The notes beneath the pieces are model-generated. The model ran no database searches and was not told the origin of the DNA. It was given only the letters and a program-made list of their open reading frames with translations. The position numbers and the translations under genes are program-made. A stretch of 64,000 nt of DNA from a virus (lineage: Duplodnaviria; Heunggongvirae; Uroviricota; Caudoviricetes), in IMG/VR virus record IMGVR_UViG_2925891887_000001, one strand, 5' to 3'. This document shows positions 2,010 through 35,869 of this stretch, piece by piece (positions within the stretch are counted from its first letter, which is position 1; the number at the start of each line of letters is the position of its first letter).

Positions 2010-3569
2010 CTAATCTCGTTTCAGAACTCCAAAATCGAATGCGCCATCAACAGGCAATACACCTTCTGCAAAGCCAGGTGTGGTGTCGATGATGTGTTTT
2101 CGCTCATAAGAGTGAGACAACAGGTATTTGTTGCTAATGTCAATGAAATCAGTGATAAAACACACGTTTGCCTGATTCTTCTTGGCTCGTAAGCCACGAC
2201 CGACACGTTGTCTCATTTCAACTTCTGCTTTCCCACCACCAGCAAGAATGACCGCACCAACGCTTGGCACATCAACACCGACATCCAGAATAGTCGAGCC
2301 TATTAAAACATCTATGTCGCCAGACGCTAAACTGTTCAGCTTTGCTTGCCTTGTCGACTGGTTCGATTCCCCATAAATGAAGTCAACTCTAAGGCCGGAC
2401 TCTTTCATCATTTCCATCAGGATTTGCCCGTGGCGTTTAAGACGAACCAGAGTCATACAATTGAGAGAATGTTGCTTATAGAGCAATGCTTCGCGAACAA
2501 TGGCCTCATTACGTCCCAAATTATACACGATCCCCAACTGATAAGCCTTTTGGTAGGCAGTGCTCATACCTACTCTAAAATTGAGGTGTTTGTTGGCAAG
2601 TTCTGCCTTGATTCTGGCCTCGTCCGGCTTGTAGGCAACTTTATGATAAAGGAAGTATGGCTTTGCCAGAATGCCTCTATCAATCAGGTACTTTTCCGTG
2701 ACTTTTATTTCAATTCGCCCGGCCACTGCCATCAGACGCATGTTGGCTTCCGTAGAATCCTTCATGAACGGCGTTGCCGTAAGCGCCAGGCGATAGTCTG
2801 CGTTCGCACATAATCTGGCAATGTCATAGAAATTAGAGCCTGAAGACTCATGCGCCTCTTCCAGAATAAGAAGAGAGACACTTGAAAGGAAGCGTTTCAC
2901 CAAGTCCCGACGTTTGAGGTGGTAGCTCTTCTTATCTGGAGTTGCATCGCGTGGTGGTTCTTCAAGGAAACTTGCCAGAGTTTGAACTGTAGCGACGTTG
3001 ATATGTCGTGATACCTGGAACTCACCCGAGCCAATGACTCCAACCTTTTGGTCTTTTAACCACGGTTCGCCATTTTCGGCGCGGTAGTCGATGGATCTCT
3101 GGAAGTTTTCGGCCATCTGAAACATCAGAACAGAGCGGGTTGTTAAAAATAATGTCATTCGACCGATACGTGCAGCTGCTTTGCAGGCAACATTAGATTT
3201 CCCGCCACCAGTAGCGATCTGCGCAATCATCATTCCCTCTCGAACCAGTGTTTCCACAGTCTGATCCTGATATGCATAATCAGGATTGTATGGGAATGGG
3301 TTGACCGCCGGATTTGGCTTTCCAAGCGCCGGAGCTTTGTCTTTGCGGATATGAACACATTTGATGCCCGCCTTGTTCAAGTTCGCCGCTACAGGCTTGG
3401 CAAAGCCAGCAGGGAACGAGTTTTTACTCCAGTTGAACATCGTGCTTGTGCCCTTCCAGTCGCCAGTCTCGACTTCGTAGCTCAACATCTGTTGCACCAG
3501 TTGCTTTACCTTGTCATCTGCGCCAGAAATAAGTGCATTTACTGCGTTAGATACAATCCGAACAGTCAT
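2010..3569 (-). CDS. Superfamily 2 DNA/RNA helicase (DEAD/DEAH-like)
   Basis: Walker A TGGGKS, motif II LILEEAHE, motif III LTATP, motif VI QRVGRGLR in the 519-aa translation. Confidence 0.75.
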   Translation of the reverse strand: MTVRIVSNAVNALISGADDKVKQLVQQMLSYEVETGDWKGTSTMFNWSKNSFPAGFAKPVAANLNKAGIKCVHIRKDKAPALGKPNPAVNPFPYNPDYAYQDQTVETLVREGMMIAQIATGGGKSNVACKAAARIGRMTLFLTTRSVLMFQMAENFQRSIDYRAENGEPWLKDQKVGVIGSGEFQVSRHINVATVQTLASFLEEPPRDATPDKKSYHLKRRDLVKRFLSSVSLLILEEAHESSGSNFYDIARLCANADYRLALTATPFMKDSTEANMRLMAVAGRIEIKVTEKYLIDRGILAKPYFLYHKVAYKPDEARIKAELANKHLNFRVGMSTAYQKAYQLGIVYNLGRNEAIVREALLYKQHSLNCMTLVRLKRHGQILMEMMKESGLRVDFIYGESNQSTRQAKLNSLASGDIDVLIGSTILDVGVDVPSVGAVILAGGGKAEVEMRQRVGRGLRAKKNQANVCFITDFIDISNKYLLSHSYERKHIIDTTPGFAEGVLPVDGAFDFGVLKRD

Positions 3570-3633
3570 AAACCTCTTTCCTTAGTGCCTTTTGTATGTT
3601 ATTTGGCTATTATAATAAGTAAGTGATTACTTA

Positions 3634-4332
3634 ATGGATTGTAGCAATAAAATGGATGTAAAAATCACGATTTTGCAGGTTGATGTTGCCAACCTTCGCC
3701 CGAATACCTGGAACACCAATTCGGTTGGTGCGCAGAATTTCGAAAAACTGAAAGGTTCTATCGAAAAATTGGGCTTTTTTAAGCCAATTTTGGCTCGTGA
3801 ACTTGAAGATGGATTTTTTGAAATCCTCGGCGGCGAACATCGCTGGCGTGCCGCTATTGAGCAAGGAATTTCAACGGTTCCGGTGCTTTCTGTGGGCAAA
3901 ATTAGCGATGTCGTAGCTAAACAGATGTCACTGGTGGACAACGAGCGATACGGTGAAGACGACCAAATCGCATTGCAACGCTTCATTGAAGAAATTCAGT
4001 CAGAGCTTGACTATCAACTGTCTGAAATCGCCCCGTATGACGACGAAATCTCGATGGTTTTAGCAAAAGAGGCGGCAATCGACCTTGAAGCACTGGAGGC
4101 GTTGTCTCGTGGTAGTGATGAGCCTGTCGATACCGACAAACGAGAGAAAACCGAACGTGTGGGTGCGGAACATCAGACCATGCGCTTCAAAGTAACTTTC
4201 GATGCGTCAGATCGTGTTGCAGAAACCATAAAAAACATCATTAAAGAGCAGGCTATTAACACCGGTAATGAAATGGAGAACGCTGGTGAGGCTCTGGTGT
4301 GGCTGGTCGACTACTACAAGGAGCGTATGTAA
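3634..4332 (+). CDS. ParB-like nuclease domain protein
   Basis: N-terminal ParB/Srx-like segment (ARELEDGFFEILGGEHRWRAAIEQGISTVPV); start could instead be the ATG near 3652. Confidence 0.55.
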   Translation: MDCSNKMDVKITILQVDVANLRPNTWNTNSVGAQNFEKLKGSIEKLGFFKPILARELEDGFFEILGGEHRWRAAIEQGISTVPVLSVGKISDVVAKQMSLVDNERYGEDDQIALQRFIEEIQSELDYQLSEIAPYDDEISMVLAKEAAIDLEALEALSRGSDEPVDTDKREKTERVGAEHQTMRFKVTFDASDRVAETIKNIIKEQAINTGNEMENAGEALVWLVDYYKERM

Positions 4333-22261: not shown

Positions 22262-22459
22262 CTATCGACTGCCCCGACCGGGGCAGTCTCACAAGGATGT
22301 GAGATGGAAAGACAAACGTTTAATTGGTATCCAGATTACGAATCTGAAAAGAGCGTAAAACCGAATGTAACGGTACTTAATTTTGGTGATGACTACGAGC
22401 AGCGACAGGCTCAAGGTCTTAATCGTATTAAAGAAGAATGGTCGGGTAATGACTCCAAC

Positions 22460-22963
22460 TTATTGATAGTGTTTTATGTTCAGATAATGCCCGATGACTT
22501 TGTCATGCAGCTCCACCGATTTTGAGAACGACAGCGACTTCCGTCCCAGCCGTGCCAGGTGCTGCCTCAGATTCAGGTTATGCCGCTCAATTCGCTGCGT
22601 ATATCGCTTGCTGATTACGTGCAGCTTTCCCTTCAGGCGGGATTCATACAGCGGCCAGCCATCCGTCATCCATATCACCACGTCAAAGGGTGACAGCAGG
22701 CTCATAAGACGCCCCAGCGTCGCCATAGTGCGTTCACCGAATACGTGCGCAACAACCGTCTTCCGGAGCCTGTCATACGCGTAAAACAGCCAGCGCTGGC
22801 GCGATTTAGCCCCGACATAGCCCCACTGTTCGTCCATTTCCGCGCAGACGATGACGTCACTGCCCGGCTGTATGCGCGAGGTTACCGACTGCGGCCTGAG
22901 TTTTTTAAGTGACGTAAAATCGTGTTGAGGCCAACGCCCATAATGCGGGCAGTTGCCCGGCAT
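22460..22963 (-). CDS. insB: IS1 InsB (transposase C-terminal ORF)
   Basis: 167-aa translation ...[36 protein letters not shown]... recognised as IS1 InsB. Confidence 0.95.
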
Positions 22964-23157
22964 CCAACGCCATTCATGGCCATATCAATGATTTTCTGGT
23001 GCGTACCGGGTTGAGAAGCGGTGTAAGTGAACTGCAGTTGCCATGTTTTACGGCAGTGAGAGCAGAGATAGCGCTGATGTCCGGCGGTGCTTTTGCCGTT
23101 ACGCACCACCCCGTCAGTAGCTGAACAGGAGGGACAGCTGATAGAAACAGAAGCCAC
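22882..23157 (-). CDS. insA: IS1 InsA
   Basis: 91-aa translation [43 protein letters not shown]... recognised as IS1 InsA. Confidence 0.95.
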
Positions 23158-23498
23158 TGGAGCACCTCAAAAACACCATCATACACTAAATCAGTAAGTT
23201 GGCAGCATCACCGAATGGTCGTTAACCTTTACCAGATCATACAACGAAATTAATGCAATCGATGACTTCCTGACTGAGCGAGCAGGCGTTGAGTCGTTCT
23301 ATTGGGTTAATCCAAGAGGAAAACGGATTGTAGTTGTATGTGACAGTCATACGGTCAAGCGATATCAGGGGTACTGTGTCTTAACTGCTACATTCAGACA
23401 AGTATTTGAGGCTTAAGTATCTGGATAAGTAAGTACTAATTTACTATCATTGTGGCGCTGACAGGATGTTAGCGCCTACTTATTTCAAGGATGAAACA

Positions 23499-25568: not shown

Positions 25569-25585
25569 ACAAGGATTTTTTGAAC

Positions 25586-28500
25586 ATGGAACAGTTCAAG
25601 AAGAAAAAGCTACCGCTGTTTATTGCCGGTGCGGGTGGTAAAAAAAGCAGCAAAAGCTCTAGTCGTACACCGGTTGAAGCCGACGATACCGTAAATTCTC
25701 GTGCAATGGCCGCTATCCTCGATCTTCTTGGGGAAGGGGTAATTGGCGGCTTAGTAAATGGCGCAAGATCTATTTTTATCGACGATCTGCCGATTGTAAA
25801 TGAAGACGGTTCCTCCAACTTCAGCGGAATCACATGGGATTTTCGCGACGGTTCACAAGACCAGACTCCAATGTCTGGCTTTGATTTCGTTGAAACGCCT
25901 AAATCCGTCAATATCCAGTTAAAAAAAACACATTATGTAACGGTTTCAATCGATAACGATGAAGCTGATCGGGTTCGTGTCATCATGAAGTTTCCTTCTT
26001 TGCGAAGCATAGATAAAAAAACTGGTGACACGAACGGTACGACTGTTGAGTACAAGTTCCAGATAGCAAATGGCGACTCAACATTTGTAGATGTGGTCGC
26101 GGAAGGTGAAAAAAGCGTTGGCATTAAGCTAACAGCAAAGAAGACCGGCGTTTATTACCGTAGCTACGAGCTGAAGCTGCCTAAGCCTGGACGCGCATAC
26201 AAGGTTCGTGTAGTCCGTATTACCGATGATAACAGTAGCCAGTATCTCTATAACGATACATGGGTGGATTCAATCGGGGAAATTGTCGATACACCGATGA
26301 ACTATCCAAACTCTGTTTTGGTTGGATTGAAGGTAAACTCTGAGCAATTCGGCAGCACCATGCCATCTCGCTCTTATCTGGTGCGTGGCCTAAAAATTCG
26401 AGTACCTTCAAACTATAACGAGTCCAGTAACACTTACGCTGGGGTATGGGATGGCACTTTTAAGCTGTTGTCTTCTTCGAACCCCGCGTGGATTCTCTTT
26501 GATTTGCTGACCAATGCTCGATATGGCCTTGGTCAGTATGTGTCGGAATCTATGATTGACCTTGGCCAGTTGTACCAGATTGGTCGATATTGTGACGAAG
26601 AGGTCGATGATGGCTTTGGTGGCAAAGAGAAACGCTTTGCAATCAATACGCAGATCACCAGTCGACAGGACGCATACCGGCTAATTCAGGATATTGCCGG
26701 AGCATTCCGCGGCATGGTGTTTTGGGCTGGTGGGATGGTTAACATCATGCAGGATAGCCCATCAGATCCGGTAATGATGTTTACCAACTCTAACGTCAAA
26801 GATGGATTGTTTACCTATAAAGGTTCTGCGCGTAAAGATCGCCCATCCGTTGCGCTCGTAACCTACAACAACAAGGAGGACGGTTATAAGCAAAACATCG
26901 AGTACGTCGAAGATCAGGACGCAATGCGCCGTTATGGTGAGCGTAAAACAGAAGTCGTAGCATTTGGCTGTACAAGCCGAGGGCAGGCTCACCGAGTTGG
27001 TTTGTGGCTTTTATATACCGCCAGAATGGAGTCGGATGTAATTACATTTACTGCCGGCTTAGACGCGTCATTTCTGATGCCTGGTGAAACCGTTCTGATT
27101 CAGAACAAATATCGCGCAGGCAAACGTAACTCAGGTCGAATTGTGGCGTTTACCAAAAACAGCGTCACACTCGATGCGCCTGTGTCGTTAGCCAAAGGCG
27201 GCTGCTTTATTCGAATACTGAATCAGGAAGGCAAAATCGTTGAACGCGATGTTCTTGAAACTGGCGAAAATATAACAAAAGTTACGTTTTCAAAAGCCCT
27301 GTCTTCGGCTGAAACGCCTGTTTTGAACGGCGTCTGGACTATTACAGAACCAGACCTCGAACCTATGCGCGTTCGCATCGTTAACATCGCGCAGGGGGAA
27401 ACGCCGGGTAGCTTTGACATCACCGCTGTTGAGAACAATCCGTCTAAATATGAGGCAATCGACAATGGTGCAACGCTGATCCCACAGAATACGACGGTAT
27501 TGGACCCAACTTACTCCAAGCCATCTAATCTGCAAATCACTGAAGGGACTTATCTCTCAAGCCCGGGCAACCTGTCAGTAAAACTGACTGCAACATGGGA
27601 AGGGAAATCTCCAGAGTATTGGATCAGTTGGCGACGTTCTGATGAAAACAATGTATCGAACTGGCAATCGGCGCGTGTAACCGAAGAGCAATACGAAATC
27701 GTTAATGTCGCGGAGAATGGACGCTACGACTTCCAGCTGTATGCGGTTTCATTCAACGGTAAAAAAACAGAGATTATCAGTACCGTTTATCAGGTGTTGG
27801 GCACAATGACACCGCCGGATGCCCCAACGTCATTAACGGCCGTTGGAGACTATCGTAATGTGATACTGAATTGGGTTAATCCAGATTCGGTAGACCTTGA
27901 TCACATTAATGTTTACGCATCCCAGACCAACAATCTGGATACGGCGAAACTGATCGCAGAGTCTGCAAGCACCACCTTTACACATGCTGGTCTTGGGGAT
28001 AGCGAAACGTGGTATTACTGGGTTCGAGCATCGAACAAGCGAGGTATGTTAAGTCCTCCGAACTCAAACTTGGGTACAGAGGCGACAACTCGCGATGTAC
28101 TGTCGTTCCTGACTGGCAAAATTACATCTTCCGAGCTTGGTCAGGCTCTGCTTGAGGACATCAACAGCAAAGCCTCTCAAGAAGCAGTTGACGAGTTAAA
28201 TGAGCATATCAACCAGAGCGTCGAATCTTTGGAGGGGGCGGTAAACGACGTTAAGGAAGATATAGCTGAATTAGATAAGCAGTTCAGCGATAACCTCGCG
28301 GATTTTGAAATAAAATTCAACGAGCGTAGCGATGCTTTGGAGAACGCACAAACCGAGCTTAAAGGTGAGGTTTCGGCAACGATCGACAAGGTCAATGAAG
28401 CGTTTGAAAAAATTGATGCTACTGATGCTGCAATTGTTGAAATCGAAAACACCGTATCTGAACACGATAAAGCTCTCGCTAATACAGTCGAGGCAATAAA

Positions 28501-30313
28501 GGCTGCAAGAGATGAAGCGGCGGCTCTTATTGCTAAGGAAAGCGAGGCTCGTGTTGAAGGCGATGCTGCAAACGCTAAACAACTGGAAGTGTTGCAGTCA
28601 ACGGTAGAGGAAAGCTCCGCTGCCGTTGAAGAAATGAAAAAGACGGTTGCAGAGGTCGATCGTGCCAGTGCAGAACTGACTACGAACATTGAAGCGTTAG
28701 CTAAAACAAATATTGACCTGGCTCTTCGTCAAGATGAAGACCAGCACAAGCAGATGGTCAATAACGCGAAGATCGCAACAACACAGAAAACCTTTGCTGA
28801 TGATATGTCCGCAATGGCCACGAAGGTTGAGGAAATTCGCGTAGAAATTGGCGAAGACATTAAGGCCAGTATTCTGGAAGAGTCCACCGCTCGTGCCGAT
28901 GGCGATGAAGCGTTGGCAAAGCGTGTCACTCAGCTGCAATCTAAGTTTGAAGGAGATATCAGCGCGGCGATTAGTACAGAGCAGGAGGCTCGTACATCTG
29001 CCGATGAAGCTCTGACGACACAAATCACTCAGCTTGAGTCGAAAGTAAGCAACGATATCGTCGCAGCTATTAAGGAAGAGCAAGAAGCCCGAGCAACGGA
29101 AGATTCGGCTCTGGCAAGCCAGATCACCCAACTTCAGGCAAAAGTTGATGATGATATTTCTGCTGCAATACGCAGTGAGCAGGAGGCCCGAGCAAGCGGG
29201 GACTCTGCGTTAGCCAAACAAATAAACCAGCTTCAGTCAAAGGTTGACGGTGATATATCCGCTGCCATCACTCAGGAGCAGGAGGCCAGAGCAAGTGCTG
29301 ACCAGGCGCTCTCACGAGAAATTAACAGCCTGCGAGCACAAACCGGAACTGATATTGCCGCAGCGGTTGCTGTAGAGACAAAAGCAAGGACTGATGCCGA
29401 TAGTGCATTGTCTACCCAGATTACGTCTCTTACAGCAAAAGCTAATGATCTCAAGGCGTCTCTTGCCAGAGAAACAACGGCTCGTGCAGATGGTGATACC
29501 GCTTTAACAAAAGAGGTTTCAAGTTTAAAAGCACAGACAGCGAAAGATATTAGTGCGGCCGTTGCAGTTGAAACGCAGGCTCGAACTGATGCTGACTCGG
29601 CGTTGTCGTCTCAGATCACCAAGCTGACCTCTCAATACAAAGAGGATATTAAAGCGGCTGTAGCAACCGAAACGAAAACGCGTACAGAGCAAGATGCTGC
29701 ATTGGCGACTCAAATCACAAACTTAGAGTCTCAAACGGCAGCCAACATTTCCGCGGCGGTCACAACTGAAACGAAAGCGAGAACGCAGGCAGATAATGCT
29801 CTGAGTGGGCGAATCGATACTCTGAAAGCAGAGGTGAATGGAAATACCGCGACAATTCAACAGCAGGCAACAGCTATTGCTGATACCAACAAAAAAGTGT
29901 CAACCGCGTGGACGTTGAAAATGGAGACTTCAACGAGCGGAGGGCAGAAGTATGTTGCCGGTATTGCGCTTGGTATTGACACCACTGGGCTATCTCAGTT
30001 TTTGGTTCAGGCGGACAGGTTTGGTTTGGTCAACTCTGTTAACGGGAAGATCACAACGCCATTTGTTATCGAAAACAGTATCGCCTATATGAATGGAGCG
30101 TATATCAAGGATGGCACAATCACCAATGCAAAAGTAGGCGATCTGCAATCTACCAATTTTGTTAGCGGTAGATCTGGATGGCGGTTCGGCAAAAATGGAA
30201 CGCTTGAGATCAACGGTAATAGCGGCGGCAATGGGCGATTGGTTATAAATGGTCAGCGGATTGACGTTTATGACGATAACAACGTCCTACGAGTAAGAAT
30301 TGGCCGTCTGTGA
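25586..30313 (+). CDS. Tail tip / host specificity protein J (central fibre)
   Basis: gpJ-like N-terminus (GGKKSSKSSSRTPVEADDTVNSRAMAAILDLLGEGVIGG), FN3-like region, then about 9-10 tandem 33-aa repeats; track start 25580 is TTG, ATG at 25586. Confidence 0.9.
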   Translation: MEQFKKKKLPLFIAGAGGKKSSKSSSRTPVEADDTVNSRAMAAILDLLGEGVIGGLVNGARSIFIDDLPIVNEDGSSNFSGITWDFRDGSQDQTPMSGFDFVETPKSVNIQLKKTHYVTVSIDNDEADRVRVIMKFPSLRSIDKKTGDTNGTTVEYKFQIANGDSTFVDVVAEGEKSVGIKLTAKKTGVYYRSYELKLPKPGRAYKVRVVRITDDNSSQYLYNDTWVDSIGEIVDTPMNYPNSVLVGLKVNSEQFGSTMPSRSYLVRGLKIRVPSNYNESSNTYAGVWDGTFKLLSSSNPAWILFDLLTNARYGLGQYVSESMIDLGQLYQIGRYCDEEVDDGFGGKEKRFAINTQITSRQDAYRLIQDIAGAFRGMVFWAGGMVNIMQDSPSDPVMMFTNSNVKDGLFTYKGSARKDRPSVALVTYNNKEDGYKQNIEYVEDQDAMRRYGERKTEVVAFGCTSRGQAHRVGLWLLYTARMESDVITFTAGLDASFLMPGETVLIQNKYRAGKRNSGRIVAFTKNSVTLDAPVSLAKGGCFIRILNQEGKIVERDVLETGENITKVTFSKALSSAETPVLNGVWTITEPDLEPMRVRIVNIAQGETPGSFDITAVENNPSKYEAIDNGATLIPQNTTVLDPTYSKPSNLQITEGTYLSSPGNLSVKLTATWEGKSPEYWISWRRSDENNVSNWQSARVTEEQYEIVNVAENGRYDFQLYAVSFNGKKTEIISTVYQVLGTMTPPDAPTSLTAVGDYRNVILNWVNPDSVDLDHINVYASQTNNLDTAKLIAESASTTFTHAGLGDSETWYYWVRASNKRGMLSPPNSNLGTEATTRDVLSFLTGKITSSELGQALLEDINSKASQEAVDELNEHINQSVESLEGAVNDVKEDIAELDKQFSDNLADFEIKFNERSDALENAQTELKGEVSATIDKVNEAFEKIDATDAAIVEIENTVSEHDKALANTVEAIKAARDEAAALIAKESEARVEGDAANAKQLEVLQSTVEESSAAVEEMKKTVAEVDRASAELTTNIEALAKTNIDLALRQDEDQHKQMVNNAKIATTQKTFADDMSAMATKVEEIRVEIGEDIKASILEESTARADGDEALAKRVTQLQSKFEGDISAAISTEQEARTSADEALTTQITQLESKVSNDIVAAIKEEQEARATEDSALASQITQLQAKVDDDISAAIRSEQEARASGDSALAKQINQLQSKVDGDISAAITQEQEARASADQALSREINSLRAQTGTDIAAAVAVETKARTDADSALSTQITSLTAKANDLKASLARETTARADGDTALTKEVSSLKAQTAKDISAAVAVETQARTDADSALSSQITKLTSQYKEDIKAAVATETKTRTEQDAALATQITNLESQTAANISAAVTTETKARTQADNALSGRIDTLKAEVNGNTATIQQQATAIADTNKKVSTAWTLKMETSTSGGQKYVAGIALGIDTTGLSQFLVQADRFGLVNSVNGKITTPFVIENSIAYMNGAYIKDGTITNAKVGDLQSTNFVSGRSGWRFGKNGTLEINGNSGGNGRLVINGQRIDVYDDNNVLRVRIGRL
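28870..29830 (+). repeat. Tandem 99-bp (33-aa) coding repeats inside gene J
   Basis: Repeated unit DISAAIxxEQEARxxADxALxxQITQLxSKVxx, about 9-10 copies. Confidence 0.8.
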
Positions 30314-30406
30314 TGGTGGAAAAAAAATTTTATATCGGTAAAAATAGGTAGGTATATACTTAATGGCGGGCAAGGATAGCCCGCCAAATCAAGGAGCATA
30401 TTCAAC

Positions 30407-33400
30407 ATGTGGTACAGGGAAGGTACTATCACATTTACACAGGGCAGCAATACTCTGGTTGGGGCAGGGACAGCCTGGAACGTAACAGCTAATGGTGTGT
30501 TGCCGGGGATGATCGTCATTGGCCCCGACAATAAGCTGTATGAGATCAAGCGCGTAACCAGTGATACGAACATTGTTCTCTCAGAACCTTATACCGGCGA
30601 AACTCAGTCTGAAGTTCCGTGCCGAATCATTACGACCTATGAAGGCGACTTAACACAGTTTAGCGCGCGCTTTACTGCGCTAATGTCGCGTATGTCGGCT
30701 GATTCCAAGTCCATACGCAGTTGGTTGACTGCGCTGGATGAGGTGACAATCGAGCGTGAAGACGGTACAGAAGTGACCGTTAAGCCGCTAATGCAGATCG
30801 TCAACGAGCACAACGAAAACGTTGAGTGGTATAAAAATAACACTGACGCGATTGATGCTGCTGGCGACAAAGCTCGTGAGGCGGCGGCCAGTGCTGCCGC
30901 AGCAGCAAAAAGCGCCAATGCCGCTGGAGAAAAAGCCTCTCAAGCGTCTCAAAGTGCATCCGCTGCGGCATCCTCACAAAGTGCCGCAAGTGCGAGTGCA
31001 ACTGCTGCGAAAAAATCTGAAACGAATGCTGCAGCGTCACAAAAATCTGCAGCCACTTCTGCATCCACCGCGACCACGAAGGCGTCAGAAGCTGCCACCT
31101 CAGCCCGGGATGCGGCGGCCTCAAAAGAGGCAGCGAAATCATCAGAAACGAGCGCAGCCTCGAGCGCCAGTAATGCCGCTTCCTCGGCAACGGCGGCAGG
31201 AAATTCCGCGAAGGCGGCAAAAACGTCCGAGACGAACGCCAGGTCTTCTGAAACGGCAGCGGGACAGAGCGCCTCGGCTGCGGCAGGCTCAAAAACAGCG
31301 GCTGCGTCGTCTGCCAGTGCCGCGTCAACAAGTGCCGGGCAGGCCTCAGCCAGTGCCACCGCCGCCGGAAAATCGGCAGAAAGTGCCGCATCGTCTGCTT
31401 CAACTGCCACAACGAAGGCTGGCCAAGCCACTGAACAGGCCAGCGCAGCAGCGAGGTCTGCTTCCGCAGCGAAGACATCCGAAACGAACGCGAAAGCGTC
31501 GGAAACCCGTGCAGAATCCTCAAAAACGGCAGCCGCATCGTCCGCCAGTTCGGCGGCGTCATCGGCATCATCGGCGTCTGCTTCAAAAGATGAGGCGACC
31601 AGACAGGCGTCAGCAGCGAAGGGCAGCGCCACGACGGCATCCACGAAAGCAACAGAGGCGGCAGGCAGTGCGACGGCAGCATCTCAGAGCAAAACTGCTG
31701 CTGAATCCGCTGCGACCCGTGCGGAAGCTGCTGCTGATCGTGCTGAAGAGATTGCCGGTGCAGTTGCGATGGAAGACGCAAGCCTTACAACTAAAGGTGT
31801 TGTGAAACTTAGCAGTGCTGTCGACAGCACCAGTGAATCGCTGGCCGCAACGCCAAAAGCAGTTAAAGCAGCCAATGACAATGCGAATAGCAGGGTGCCA
31901 TCTAACCGAAAAGTTAACGGTAAAGCACTGACTGCGGATATCAAATTAACGCCGAAAGATATTGGTACTTTAAATTCAGTAACGATGTCTTTCTCTGGCG
32001 GGGCAGGGTGGTTCAAACTGGCTACGGTTACCATGCCACAAGCGAGTTCCATCGTTTACATCGCATTGATTGGTGGCGCTGGTTACAACGTCGGCTCCCC
32101 ACATCAGGCAGGCATTTCAGAACTGGTTCTACGAGCAGGCAATGGAAACCCCAAAGGGATTACAGGTGCTTTGTGGAAGCGTACAGCTGTCGGATTAACG
32201 AATTTCGCCTGGATCAACACATCCGGCGATACATATGATATTTACGTTGAGATTGGCAATTATGCGACTCGTGTAAATATCCATTGGGATTGTACTGCAA
32301 ATGCGACAGTTTCTATTTATACCTCGCCAACATATTCAGCGAGTAAGCCTTCCAGCGTTACCGATGGTGTTGTTTATACGATGTATAGCACACATCAGAA
32401 ACCGACGCCGTTAGATATTGGAGCACTGCCAACAACCGGAGGAACAGTTTCAGGTCCGTTGTCTGTTACAGGTGGATTAACTGGTTCATTGAATGGTAAT
32501 GCAAGTACAGCCACGAAATTGCAGACGGCAAGATCTATCGGTGGAGTTGTTTTCGACGGTTCTGCAAATATTAACCTTCCAGGTGTAAACACTACGGGTA
32601 ATCAGAACACCACTGGTAATGCTGCAACTGCTACAAAACTTCAGACTGCAAGAAAAATATCCGGTGTTCCATTTGATGGTTCTACTGATATCACTTTAAC
32701 CGCTGCGCATGTTGCCGCTTTCGCAAGAAGGGCAACAGGGTCATATGCGGATGCTGATGGTGGCGTGCCGTGGAATGCTGAATCTGGTGCTTACAATGTA
32801 ACTAGAACAGGCGACACCTATATTCTTGCCAACTTTTATACCGGTGTAGGTAGTTGCCGGACCCTGCAGATGAAGGCGCATTACAGAAATGGAGGTCTGT
32901 TCTACCGTTCCTCAAGAGATGGCTATGGTTTTGAAAGTGGTTGGGAGCAGGTTTACACGACTGGATTTATGCCTCAGCCGGCTGATATAAACGCGCCAAC
33001 CGCTGCCGCTGGATGGTTAAATAGTGGTAACGGAACGGCATTTACGACTGCTCAATTTATAACTTGGCTAAATAATCAGGGGGCATTTACAAACAAACAT
33101 TGGATCGCACGGTGCTCATGGACTTACGCCAACAATAATTATATAGACGACACTGGTTGCGGTAGGATCGATCTATCTGGTTCCGTGATTGAGGTGTTTA
33201 GTAATAAGGCAACAAGCCACTACACTATTCGTGTTACAACGACAACAACATCGGGTCATGGTGGTGTTAACAATGCGGAATTTATTTATGTGTACAATGG
33301 AAGTGATTATGCACCAGGCTGGCGTCGTTCTTATAACACTAGAAACAAACCAACAGCTTCTGATGTAGGAGCATTACCGCTTTCAGGTGGCACATTATCT

Positions 33401-34705
33401 GGAGGGTTAACATCTTCTGGTGAGATCATTTCAAAATATGCAAATGGTTTCCGCATTGCTTACGGTAAGTTTGGGTTCTTTATCCGTAATGATGGGGTGA
33501 ACACATATTTCCTGCTAACAGCATCAGGAGACACATTAGGTTCATGGAACGGTTTGCGACCTATTACAATTAATAATACCAGCGGTGCTGTATCAATTGG
33601 TAATGGACTAAATGTGACTGGTGGCGTAAATGGTAGTTTGAACGGTAATGCTTCAACAGCTACGAAGTTGCAAACAGCGAGAAACATCAATGGTGTTAAG
33701 TTTGATGGTTCAGGCGATATCAATATTAATACATTGGTATCTCGTGGCCGAGTTACGGCGTTAAGCGGCTCTACTCAAGGCACTGCTGGCATTCAAATGT
33801 ATGAGGCGTACAACAATAGCTACCCGACCACGTATGGCAACGTATTGCACATGAAAGGTGCGAGTGCTGCTGGTGAGGGCGAGTTGCTTATTGGCTGGAG
33901 TGGTACGAGCGGTGCACATGCGCCAGTTTTCATTCGCTCACGAAGAGATAACACAGGTGCAGCATGGTCAGCGTGGGCGCAGGTATATACCGCTAAGGAT
34001 TCAATCCCTGGTGTGAATACAACTGGTAATCAGAACACTACTGGTAATGCCGCAACCGCCACAAAATTGCAGACAGCAAGGAAAATTGCTGGTGTGGCGT
34101 TTGATGGCTCTGCCGATATAACTTTGACTGCGGCTAACCTTAATGCTTACACGAAAACAGAGGTAGCAAACCTTCTAAGTTCCTATGCAAGCAGATCATC
34201 ACTGACAGGCTATAGTGGCAACCTGGATATTGTTGCTGAAACACTGGTTGTCAAATCAGGCGGTAGTGGAGGGTTTGCTATATGGGATATTGGCACAACT
34301 ACTAGCGGTGCCAATATGTACATTGATCCAAACCCAGGTATCAATACAGTTTGGCGTTCAACGTCTTCAAGGCGCTATAAAAAGGATATTGAAACATTAC
34401 AAGATCGATATGCTGATGAACTTTTGTCATTAAGACCTGTTTGGTATCGTTCAATTTGTCGAGGTGACCGAAAGGATTGGGGGTATTACGGCCTTATTGC
34501 TGAAGAGGTTGGTGAGATTGCCCCGCAATATGTCCATTGGCGTGAACCAACAAATAATGATTCTCCAGAAGATATTTCCTCAAATGGTATGGTCGCTGAA
34601 GGAGTGATGTATGAGCGTTTGGTTGTACCACTCATTTATCATATTCAGCAATTGACCAAAAGGGTTGAGGAGCTTGAAACGAAGTTAAATTCACCTAAAG
34701 AATAA
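30407..34705 (+). CDS. Side tail fibre protein with C-terminal intramolecular chaperone (peptidase S74-like) domain
   Basis: Stf-like Ala/Ser/Thr low-complexity region (KTSETNAKASE...), three copies of NGNASTATKLQTAR-x-I-x-GV-x-FDGS, and C-terminal chaperone-like segment (SRRYKKDIETLQDRYADELLSLRPVWYR). Confidence 0.85.
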   Translation: MWYREGTITFTQGSNTLVGAGTAWNVTANGVLPGMIVIGPDNKLYEIKRVTSDTNIVLSEPYTGETQSEVPCRIITTYEGDLTQFSARFTALMSRMSADSKSIRSWLTALDEVTIEREDGTEVTVKPLMQIVNEHNENVEWYKNNTDAIDAAGDKAREAAASAAAAAKSANAAGEKASQASQSASAAASSQSAASASATAAKKSETNAAASQKSAATSASTATTKASEAATSARDAAASKEAAKSSETSAASSASNAASSATAAGNSAKAAKTSETNARSSETAAGQSASAAAGSKTAAASSASAASTSAGQASASATAAGKSAESAASSASTATTKAGQATEQASAAARSASAAKTSETNAKASETRAESSKTAAASSASSAASSASSASASKDEATRQASAAKGSATTASTKATEAAGSATAASQSKTAAESAATRAEAAADRAEEIAGAVAMEDASLTTKGVVKLSSAVDSTSESLAATPKAVKAANDNANSRVPSNRKVNGKALTADIKLTPKDIGTLNSVTMSFSGGAGWFKLATVTMPQASSIVYIALIGGAGYNVGSPHQAGISELVLRAGNGNPKGITGALWKRTAVGLTNFAWINTSGDTYDIYVEIGNYATRVNIHWDCTANATVSIYTSPTYSASKPSSVTDGVVYTMYSTHQKPTPLDIGALPTTGGTVSGPLSVTGGLTGSLNGNASTATKLQTARSIGGVVFDGSANINLPGVNTTGNQNTTGNAATATKLQTARKISGVPFDGSTDITLTAAHVAAFARRATGSYADADGGVPWNAESGAYNVTRTGDTYILANFYTGVGSCRTLQMKAHYRNGGLFYRSSRDGYGFESGWEQVYTTGFMPQPADINAPTAAAGWLNSGNGTAFTTAQFITWLNNQGAFTNKHWIARCSWTYANNNYIDDTGCGRIDLSGSVIEVFSNKATSHYTIRVTTTTTSGHGGVNNAEFIYVYNGSDYAPGWRRSYNTRNKPTASDVGALPLSGGTLSGGLTSSGEIISKYANGFRIAYGKFGFFIRNDGVNTYFLLTASGDTLGSWNGLRPITINNTSGAVSIGNGLNVTGGVNGSLNGNASTATKLQTARNINGVKFDGSGDININTLVSRGRVTALSGSTQGTAGIQMYEAYNNSYPTTYGNVLHMKGASAAGEGELLIGWSGTSGAHAPVFIRSRRDNTGAAWSAWAQVYTAKDSIPGVNTTGNQNTTGNAATATKLQTARKIAGVAFDGSADITLTAANLNAYTKTEVANLLSSYASRSSLTGYSGNLDIVAETLVVKSGGSGGFAIWDIGTTTSGANMYIDPNPGINTVWRSTSSRRYKKDIETLQDRYADELLSLRPVWYRSICRGDRKDWGYYGLIAEEVGEIAPQYVHWREPTNNDSPEDISSNGMVAEGVMYERLVVPLIYHIQQLTKRVEELETKLNSPKE
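32582..32708 (+). repeat. ~125-bp direct repeat within tail fibre gene (copy 1)
   Basis: ggtgtaaacactacgggtaatcagaacaccactggtaatgctgc... recurs with few mismatches at about 34010-34136. Confidence 0.8.
34010..34136 (+). repeat. ~125-bp direct repeat within tail fibre gene (copy 2)
   Basis: Near-identical to 32582-32708; encodes GVNTTGNQNTTGNAATATKLQTARKI-GV-FDGS-DITLTAA. Confidence 0.8.
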
Positions 34706-34765
34706 ACAACTTCAATCGGGGCTGGAGCTAAACCAGCCCCTGCTTAAAAGTATAAGGATATATTT

Positions 34766-35020
34766 ATGAGCTATGGTGCACAGGTTTGGTCGCCATCAAG
34801 ACAGGAGATGGTCAATGCGTTGGCCCCTGTTTATTACCTCGATTATTTTACTCCCTCTGGTTCAGGAAGTAGAACATATGAGGTTGAGGCGGGATTGGGA
34901 ATCGACTATTACATAATGGACGTAACCAATGGAAAGTACACAAGTCTTACGGTTTCTGGAAATACCATTTCGTGGTCTGGAGCTAGTGGTAATTTAAACA
35001 TATTGGTTTTTCAAAAATAA
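34766..35020 (+). CDS. Hypothetical protein (tail fibre accessory?)
   Basis: 84-aa ORF immediately downstream of tail fibre gene. Confidence 0.35.
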   Translation: MSYGAQVWSPSRQEMVNALAPVYYLDYFTPSGSGSRTYEVEAGLGIDYYIMDVTNGKYTSLTVSGNTISWSGASGNLNILVFQK

Positions 35021-35628
35021 TGTACGGAAGCAAGATATATCGATCTGACGGGAAGGTCTGGATGTCTCCTTCTTTGTCTCCTATCGTTTTTCAGAGAAAG
35101 CAGGTTGTTTCTTTGTCCGGCGGGACAGAGTTTAACACCAAAATATCTCCAGATCGTTCACCGATTATTTTTGTTGCCTATTCGAAAGCTGTTTCATTAA
35201 TAGCCAACAGAATAGTGCGTAACAACCAGGTGATTTACAGTTTCGGAGGTCAGGGTAGCGACTCTAGTGCCACGATATACGTATTTTCGAAAGGTATAGC
35301 CAAAAAAGAAACTTGGGGCATGAGTTTTTTCAATGCACAAGGGGAGGAAATCTATAATACGGCAAATATCCCACTTTCATTTACCTTTCTTAATAATACG
35401 GAGTGGAACAGCTCTGGAGGGCATGTTTTTGATTACCCTCCAGCGATAATCCCAACATATGCGAATGTGTTCGCTGTTCCAGTACCGGGCGGAGCCATGA
35501 CAATGGTTTATGGATATGCGGCATATGGAAATACTGTTAGCTCGATATTCGTAAACCAACTTAATGGCGGCCATAGTTTTAGCGTAAATGGCAGAGTACC
35601 GGTAATAAATAGAAATCTGTATAACTGA
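35020..35628 (+). CDS. Hypothetical protein (tail fibre accessory?)
   Basis: 202-aa ORF coupled to upstream ORF (ATG overlaps stop). Confidence 0.35.
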   Translation: MYGSKIYRSDGKVWMSPSLSPIVFQRKQVVSLSGGTEFNTKISPDRSPIIFVAYSKAVSLIANRIVRNNQVIYSFGGQGSDSSATIYVFSKGIAKKETWGMSFFNAQGEEIYNTANIPLSFTFLNNTEWNSSGGHVFDYPPAIIPTYANVFAVPVPGGAMTMVYGYAAYGNTVSSIFVNQLNGGHSFSVNGRVPVINRNLYN

Positions 35629-35635
35629 TGAGTAG

Positions 35636-35869
35636 ATGATGAAAAGATTATTTCTAACAATAGCTGTTGTTCTCTCTCTTACTGGCTGCCAGAAATTGCC
35701 GACACCTATATGTTACGGTGAGGCTATCATTGGTGGACAGGAGACAGTCATACCCATATATGCTGTTAAAAAAGTGAACGACTATACCTTATACAAAGCG
35801 GGTAGCATCTATAACTGGCGATGGGTAGGAGTAGGTGCTTTCTCATCAGTCCGTTGCAATGCTGAATGA
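35636..35869 (+). CDS. Small lipoprotein, Cor/Llp-like superinfection-exclusion candidate
   Basis: 77 aa; signal peptide plus lipobox (MMKRLFLTIAVVLSLTGC); sits just downstream of receptor-binding genes. Confidence 0.5.
   Translation: MMKRLFLTIAVVLSLTGCQKLPTPICYGEAIIGGQETVIPIYAVKKVNDYTLYKAGSIYNWRWVGVGAFSSVRCNAE

Follow-up and report, generated by a model that had tools for sequence, protein, structure and literature searches.

On a 64,000-nucleotide (nt) stretch of viral DNA (IMG/VR record IMGVR_UViG_2925891887_000001, Caudoviricetes; here called the window) we analysed a gene at positions 30407-34705 of the plus strand. The 1432-amino-acid (aa) protein encoded by it is very likely the side tail fibre of an SSU5-like Escherichia coli phage-plasmid, with a modular architecture in which globular parts are joined by a recurrent connector and the C-terminus is formed by an intramolecular chaperone of the Peptidase_S74 family. 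An earlier reading of the same DNA, made by a model from the letters and a list of open reading frames (ORFs) and referred to here as the original prediction, had described a mosaic side tail fibre with a low-complexity rod, internal direct repeats and a self-cleaving C-terminus. It proved largely correct, with the corrections given below.

The ORF is uninterrupted over 4299 nt from its ATG start, with an AAGGAG ribosome-binding site 10 nt before the ATG. Directly upstream lies the gene for a J-like central tail fibre protein (1577 aa, positions 25580-30313), which is the position that Stf genes take after J in lambdoid phages. All matches of the protein among PHROG, Pfam and PDB entries were tail fibre proteins, and these matches together with the position of the gene bear out the proposed assignment as a side tail fibre. 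Public records label the protein "phage tail fiber protein" or "tail fiber domain-containing protein" and close homologues "chaperone of endosialidase". The gene was found with 100% identity in two finished E. coli plasmids of about 110 kb (NZ_CP195468.1 and NZ_JBSWAS010000002.1, both complete circular records) and with 97-99.9% identity in about 20 further plasmids of 108-156 kb. Over positions 21407-43705 the window agreed to 99.996% with p22AR0322A, a circular 109-kb plasmid from E. coli 22AR0322. The first 513 nt of the gene matched only records of SSU5 or SSU5-like elements, with 77.6% identity to Salmonella phage SSU5. The plasmid identity and this N-terminal match together identify the element as an SSU5-like E. 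coli phage-plasmid. Parts of the fibre gene were matched in 4202 of 5426 complete E. coli genomes, and at least 80% of it in 47 only; the gene is a specific assembly of very common parts.

The N-terminal anchor domain is encoded at 73 loci, mostly with 77-100% aa identity, ahead of very different fibres. A search of genome contigs for this domain gave 5 loci only, and far more were supplied by the viral collection. The 73 anchor loci and four annotated records yielded 74 fibre ORFs, 56 of which were complete with a length of at least 600 aa. These 56 fibres ranged from 648 to 1647 aa, contained 0-7 copies of the connector motif described below and ended in many different C-termini, and at least seven different S74-bearing C-termini were present in the family. 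Lambdoid phages match the DNA of the gene no earlier than nt 522-545, and an Stf-type N-terminal attachment region was not found.

From nt 525 onwards the rod and the following knob showed 85-95.5% DNA identity to lambdoid tail fibre genes. The 95.5% match (nt 525-2270) was to a lambdoid phage tail gene whose record reads only 'tail protein' and 'hypothetical protein', and the annotation 'side tail fiber protein' was carried by several other matches with 85-92% identity; the matched span extended up to nt 525-2528 (85-95%). The rod consists to 73% of alanine (40%), serine (23%) and threonine (10%). Its alanines recur with a period of 3.5/7.0 residues (power 32.6; 100 shuffles reached 8.8 at most), and a single-sequence AlphaFold2 (AF2) model of aa 130-520 was almost one continuous helix, with a predicted local distance difference test score (pLDDT) of mostly 75-88 per block. 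Tandem Repeats Finder reported only four trivial arrays of about two copies in the gene, so the rod is no tandem array at the DNA level, and a Pfam scan of the rod with E-values up to 10 gave chance-level matches only and no family. Periodicity and model point to an alanine-core coiled coil with an in-phase heptad repeat rather than to disordered filler. An alpha-helix rises by 1.5 Å per residue, and at this rise the rod would be about 46 nm long. What the original prediction called an Stf-like low-complexity rod is therefore indeed lambdoid and rich in Ala, Ser and Thr, with repeats that are heptads of the protein and not repeats of the DNA. The three ORFs overlapping the rod in alternative frames, rightly taken as spurious, are by-products of composition: 215 of 343 substitutions among 15 relatives aligned without gaps fell on codon position 3 of the fibre frame.

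The rod ends at the junction motif SLTTKGVVKLSSAVDSTSESLAATPKAVKAANDNANSRV, where similarity to relatives repeatedly breaks off (nt 1481-1488), and the central part that follows is related to another group of fibres. A search of PDB sequences gave Mu S/S' (8ju3, E=7e-64; 5yvq) and T4 gp34, and 4uxe was matched as well. The aa identity of the central segment reached 58-68% with S of P1, P7 and D6 and 60% with the fibre of SSU5 itself. The Gp34_trimer domain and S/S'-type knobs that are typical of the Mu S, P1 S and T4 gp34 module were both present, and the start of the Gp34_trimer domain at aa 956 coincides with another recurrent breakpoint (nt 2866). Two knobs resemble the variable part of Mu S', with residues 860-984 aligning to 201-324 of 8ju3 and residues 771-868 to 324-421 (phmmer). 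They stand in reverse order relative to 8ju3, which suggests shuffling on the level of domains rather than simple divergence. The fibre is thus a mosaic as predicted, with an N-terminus matching SSU5-type elements only, a lambdoid rod, and a centre of P1/P7/D6 S, Mu S/S' and T4 gp34 relationship.

The connector was recognized by the motif GNA[AS]TATKLQTAR-x-I-x-GV-x-FDGS. Three copies had been predicted; we found four (aa 697, 737, 1080 and 1213), two of the form NGNAS and two of the form TGNAA, with two copies reading NGNASTATKLQTAR and two reading TGNAATATKLQTAR. The motif is the core of a 40-residue unit with the consensus GNAATATKLQTARxIxGVxFDGSANIxLPGVNxxGNQxTT, to which 50 distinct copies from relatives contributed. 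Units often stand in tandem, and in 54 cases copies were spaced by exactly 40 aa. A Pfam scan of the connector region (aa 687-778, E up to 10) returned no family and chance-level matches only, phmmer against all PDB sequences gave chance matches only (E about 1), and a full-text literature search for the motif strings (TATKLQTAR and variants) retrieved no relevant paper. This connector, for which we found neither a Pfam family nor a solved structure nor a mention in the literature, is the sole mildly new element of the fibre.

The direct repeats of about 125 bp in the original prediction are present where they had been located and turned out to be two of the connectors (copies A and B). Both finished plasmids contain them within a gene of 100% identity, and the repeats are therefore no assembly artefact. 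Copies A and B have diverged to 75% DNA identity over 151 nt, or 79.7% over 128 nt (blastn within the gene, E=5e-27). As 26 of their 37 differences lie at third codon positions and the encoded peptides are 82% identical over 50 aligned codons, selection on the protein maintains them, and they are old or separately acquired copies and not the result of a recent duplication.

Comparison with the relatives links the connectors to module exchange. We took the ends of high-scoring segment pairs (HSPs) from megablast searches of the fibre gene against its relatives as breakpoints. Breakpoints within connectors were found at nt 2100, 2221 and 2248 (units 1-2), 3250-3278 (unit 3), and 3598-3601 and 3716 (edges of unit 4); those outside the units were at nt 620, 1240, 2907, 3536, 3781 and 4225, in addition to the two at domain edges mentioned above. 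Connector blocks, about 10% of the gene, contained seven of the 15 distinct breakpoints (binomial p=4.5e-4). In Cyrano-type fibres, similarity reappears as an isolated island over the copy B region (nt 3598-3781). Furthermore, the same knobs occur in different orders between the connector arrays of relatives. In relative L004 the knob of aa 503-696 comes after connector units and not before unit 1, and relative L023 has four units, the knob of aa 1106-1200, three units, and then the same tip and S74 domain. This evidence supports domain swapping at connectors, and with it one part of the earlier suggestion that the repeats mediate swapping or deletion.

The 40-residue unit might even be a dedicated universal joint that acts as structural spacer and recombination landing pad at once, which we consider possible rather than probable. 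The connectors could also be purely structural, for example a shaft fold between knobs, with exchange proceeding by illegitimate or other recombination that is filtered by selection for in-frame, foldable joints; their coincidence with module boundaries would then be a by-product of their being the only conserved DNA. We hold this explanation, too, to be no more than tentative. It would account for the strong conservation of the protein alongside synonymous divergence, for the near-invariant positions across the 50 distinct copies, and for the recurrent breakpoints at nt 1481-1488 and 2866, which lie at domain edges other than connectors. On the other hand, corresponding connectors of different elements share 93-97% DNA identity across the boundary, as homologous exchange would use, and phage recombinases tolerate such divergence (PMC3945230).

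The C-terminal part of the fibre carries the second main feature. Residues 1320-1376 matched Peptidase_S74 (PF13884) with 27.0 bits in the whole protein and with 30.7 bits when aa 1245-1432 were searched; the curated gathering score of the family is 22 bits, and the match starts with Ser1320 at position 1 of the profile. An alignment of 24 homologues, the most distant with 31% identity, shows little or no variation in the string R-S-T-S-S-x-R-Y-K; Y1324, K1325 and E1329 never vary, and T1319, S1320 and S1321 hardly do. The fibre thereby shows the catalytic signature T1319-S1320-S-R-R-Y-K1325, with the lysine five residues after the serine. In T5 pb1 the scissile bond is Thr1263-Ser1264, Lys1269 activates the serine and the exchange S1264A blocks cleavage (PMC4690869); the spacing of T1319, S1320 and K1325 is the same. 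An alignment profile further matched the C-terminal chaperone of a solved L-shaped tail fibre (8hqz_d, E=2.2e-8). In the AF2 model, which was confident for the chaperone part only, this part (model residues 88-188) had block pLDDT values of mostly 70-88, with one block at 55, and a terminal helix at 158-184. The monomer model thus shows the mixed alpha/beta part and long C-terminal coiled-coil helix of the S74 fold, at modest scores. The eight best Foldseek matches in the PDB with E<1 were all intramolecular chaperones, among them 7dc3 (MyRF ICA; probability 1.00, TM score 0.41-0.54), 3gud, 4uw8 (T5) and 3gw6 (K1F). The chaperone-like C-terminus, for which the original prediction had proposed a domain search as check, is thus upheld by an above-cutoff Peptidase_S74 match, by the 8hqz_d profile and by the structural matches.

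Elsewhere, in Drexlerviridae and lambdoid phages, homologues of the tip together with the S74 domain are encoded by genes of their own (about 230 aa), and the module accordingly shows a fusion/fission polymorphism. Two of these stand-alone genes (L078, 3881-4558, phage KarlJaspers; L079, 4354-5058, phage PhiR49_1) encode proteins of about 225-234 aa with 47-56% aa identity, and are situated two ORFs downstream of a lateral or side tail fibre gene. That some such independent small proteins are annotated as 'lateral tail fiber chaperone' indicates that their role may differ from the classic case, and the S74 domain of our fibre had the lowest score of the C-termini tested in the fibre family (27-31 versus 31-58 bits). 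Both points would agree with a degenerate remnant that has lost cleavage or remains on the fibre as a cap for trimerisation. We consider this unlikely, because the Thr-Ser....Lys signature and its surroundings have remained invariant or nearly so down to 31% identity, which is unexpected for a dead site.

The surroundings of the gene agree with a self-contained fibre. No Tfa-like chaperone gene follows: downstream come two ORFs of 84 and 202 aa and then cor, all without a match to Tfa in Pfam. In relatives whose tips depend on Tfa (NIAFNYIVRLA and similar, with Collar and Phage_fiber domains), a Tfa-like ORF of 172-189 aa follows the fibre gene within 1-15 nt, whereas fibres with the present S74 ending have unrelated genes directly downstream. 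Neither Collar nor Phage_fiber Pfam domains were detected in the fibre itself, which together with the missing tfa gene speaks against a Tfa-dependent tip; a sister fibre (L011) does carry these domains.

Deletion or duplication of the central 1.4 kb by recombination between the two direct repeats, which would toggle fibre length or specificity within a lineage, we consider quite improbable. The repeats, of about 125-150 bp, do share one reading frame, and the modules between them form a self-contained set; the number of tandem connectors, which varies from 1 to 4 at a 40-aa period among relatives, indicates unequal exchange of units over evolutionary time. However, a synthetic in-register deletion junction searched against the 5426 complete E. 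coli genomes gave no record covering at least 80% of it, each match covering one half only, and the deletion was present in 0 of 29 close relatives, so that the deletion part of the earlier suggestion was not supported. Minimal pairing segments of 23-34 nt and a tolerance of about 12-17% divergence are given for Red-beta and RecA (PMC3945230), and the longest exact run between the copies is 14 nt. The two are too diverged for efficient intragenic homologous recombination, and their differences, which lie mainly at third codon positions, indicate old or separately acquired copies. An invertible segment as in Mu or P1 (Gin/Cin) was rejected as well: positions 30000-35200 contain only two inverted repeats, both weak and short, and no invertase gene is annotated within 9 kb on either side in the identical plasmid.

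It is very improbable that the fibre gene is a pseudogene or an annotation artefact: the Prokaryotic Genome Annotation Pipeline (PGAP) marks it in NZ_CP195468.1 as pseudo ('incomplete, missing N-terminus', with a feature starting 465 nt into the ORF) and a tail gene of the element is disrupted by IS1, but the 4299-nt frame is unbroken behind a good ribosome-binding site, the N-terminal 150 residues are mostly 77-100% identical in at least 70 loci, and other records such as phage Cyrano annotate the gene from the same start. In another plasmid the PGAP coding sequence begins 384 nt into the ORF, and the truncation seems to be a fault of annotation brought about by the Ala/Ser-rich stretch.

Several points weigh against the interpretation as a modular, connector-joined and S74-chaperoned fibre. 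The S74 score of 27-31 bits is modest, the AF2 model is that of a monomer with a mean pLDDT of 58.8, and the Foldseek E-values reach only 1e-3. HSP ends are approximate, conserved connectors look like boundaries even when crossovers took place elsewhere, and the sampled relatives are not independent lineages. The copies within the gene are 20-25% diverged and share at most 14 nt of exact identity, below the pairing minimum of 23-34 nt. Finally, according to the annotation of the 99.996%-identical plasmid, the gene of a phage tail protein is split by an IS1A element (window positions ~22304-23416, transposase ~22460-23157) into two fragments, both pseudogenes; tails may not form from this copy of the phage-plasmid, and its fibre may never be assembled.

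Taking these points into account, we propose the following model for the modular fibre. It would most likely be a homotrimer, whose first ~143 residues would dock it on the SSU5-type tail tip. Residues 144-455 would form a trimeric alpha-helical coiled coil with an alanine core, followed by globular knob modules that are separated by the 40-residue connector with its core GNAxTATKLQTARxIxGVxFDGS. By analogy with T5 pb1, the last 113 residues might nucleate trimer folding of the distal part, after which Ser1320, activated by Lys1325, would cut the T1319-S1320 bond, free the chaperone and expose a tip of 75 residues that might bind the receptor. No separate Tfa gene would be needed because the fibre carries its own chaperone domain. 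Knobs and tips could then be exchanged, and the number of connectors changed, by homologous recombination at connectors that correspond to each other in SSU5-like elements, lambdoid prophages, P1-like phages and Drexlerviridae.

The fibre shares features with several known systems. Like T5 pb1 (1396 aa) and the DT57C-type LtfA (8hqz), it is a long siphovirus side fibre; T5 pb1 has an Ala/Ser/Glu-rich N-terminal rod region and a C-terminal S74 chaperone that is removed by Ser/Lys autoproteolysis. Unlike in T5 pb1, there is no bullet-shaped receptor domain, only 75 residues lie between the last connector and the predicted cleavage site, and no similarity is detectable outside the chaperone. With lambdoid Stf the fibre shares its position after J as well as rod and first knob (nt 525-2270/2528, 85-95% DNA identity), but its anchor is SSU5-specific and it ends in an S74 chaperone instead of a Collar/Phage_fiber tip in need of Tfa. 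The central knobs and the Gp34_trimer domain are homologous to those of the network of Mu S/S', P1/P7/D6 S and T4 gp34 (8ju3, 5yvq, 4uxe, PF21446), whose horizontally exchanged tail fibre segments were reportedly described by Sandmeier and Haggard-Ljungquist in the 1990s; the two Mu S'-like domains are in the opposite order, and unlike in Mu and P1 there is no invertible segment or invertase nearby. The chaperone domains of K1F endosialidase and MyRF ICA belong to the same Pfam family and have the same predicted fold (7dc3, 3gud and 3gw6 being top structural matches), but sequence identity is 12-21% and the domain is found here on a fibre, not on a tailspike enzyme or a eukaryotic transcription factor.

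Mosaic fibres are established, as are Ala-rich coiled-coil rods and S74 chaperones, and the fibre represents textbook tail fibre mosaicism with an intramolecular chaperone that leaves current understanding unchanged. If the connector were indeed a universal joint, SSU5-like phage-plasmids, lambdoid prophages, P1-like phages and virulent Drexlerviridae would trade receptor-binding knobs in a combinatorial way, including the fusion or fission of a stand-alone tip-plus-S74 gene with the main fibre. Tail fibres decide which bacteria a phage enters, in this case a plasmid-like prophage able to carry resistance genes. The host range of SSU5-like phage-plasmids has been described as poorly understood (PMC9600943). 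The map of module boundaries, the predicted cleavage site T1319-S1320 and the recurring connector could guide fibre engineering or host-range prediction for these elements.

Table 1. Features of the fibre gene in the window (positions in nt of the window, residues of the fibre protein in aa)
Feature	Position	Strand	Basis
Shine-Dalgarno AAGGAG	30391..30396	+	10 nt upstream of ATG, read from sequence
Probable side tail fibre gene, 1432 aa	30407..34705	+	ORF list; PHROG tail fibre families; 100% identical plasmid copies
N-terminal anchor domain, aa 1-143, SSU5-type specific	30407..30835	+	DNA matches, 73 loci
Ala/Ser/Thr-rich heptad rod, probable coiled coil, aa 144-455 (312 residues)	30836..31771	+	Composition, periodicity, AF2
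Spurious 326-aa ORF over rod	30801..31781	-	ORF list
Spurious ORF over rod	30822-31805	+	ORF list
Spurious ORF over rod	30949-31644	-	ORF list
Junction motif SLTTKGVVKLSSAVDSTSESLAATPKAVKAANDNANSRV, aa 451-502	31757..31912	+	Aligns to Mu tail fibre S residues 105-156 (8ju3, 5yvq)
Knob module aa 503-696, common to lambdoid Stf	31913..32494	+	DNA matches to lambdoid phages
Connector units 1 and 2, tandem, aa 697-768, 40-residue period	32495..32710	+	Repeat search, consensus
Long direct repeat copy A (tail of unit 1 and unit 2)	32579..32729	+	Repeat search
Two knobs like the Mu S' variable part, aa 771-868 and 860-984	32717..33358	+	phmmer vs PDB
Gp34_trimer-type domain, aa 956-1055	33272..33571	+	PF21446, E=3.5e-28; PDB T4 gp34, Mu S
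Connector unit 3, aa 1080-1105	33644..33721	+	Repeat search; relatives' breakpoints nt 3250-3278
Knob module aa 1106-1200	33722..34006	+	Also between connector arrays in relative L023
Long direct repeat copy B (partial unit and unit 4), aa 1201-1250	34007..34157	+	Repeat search
Distal tip of predicted mature fibre, aa 1245-1319, 75 residues, ending at predicted T1319-S1320 bond	34139..34363	+	Alignment
Peptidase_S74 intramolecular chaperone, aa 1320-1432 (113 residues)	34364..34702	+	Pfam, alignment, profile, AF2 and Foldseek
Ser1320 codon	34364-34366	+	
Lys1325 codon	34379-34381	+	

Between the fibre and the holin gene lies a cassette (34766-35866) encoding the 84-aa protein (phrog_557), the 202-aa protein (phrog_425, 'moron') and a Cor exclusion lipoprotein (lipobox LTGC, ~35636-35866). 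In relatives the presence of this cassette is independent of the type of fibre C-terminus. The 84-aa and 202-aa genes were also considered as fibre chaperones and rejected: they have no Tfa or other Pfam match and occur with or without S74 fibres, even after a fibre with its own Tfa-like gene.

The fibre genes of the SSU5-type family are repeatedly disrupted. In some relatives (L018, L021, L022) the fibre ORF stops early, at 852-939 aa, and DNA similarity to the present gene resumes beyond. The break in L018 (IMGVR_UViG_2851976983_000001) comes after fibre aa 939, and the ORF that follows it presumably encodes a protein resembling InsC of IS2. Internal expression signals are not indicated, as a promoter and terminator scan found fewer sites than in shuffled sequence.

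The 93 nt that separate the fibre gene from the J-like gene contain a G+C-rich hairpin (GGCGGGC-aaggata-GCCCGCC, 30365-30386) that is not followed by a run of T. The J-like protein itself has about 10 tandem repeats of ~33 aa (ITQLQSKV-GDISAAI--EQEARA-AD-AL--Q) between aa ~1030 and 1370, which look like a long coiled-coil insertion ahead of its C-terminal domain.

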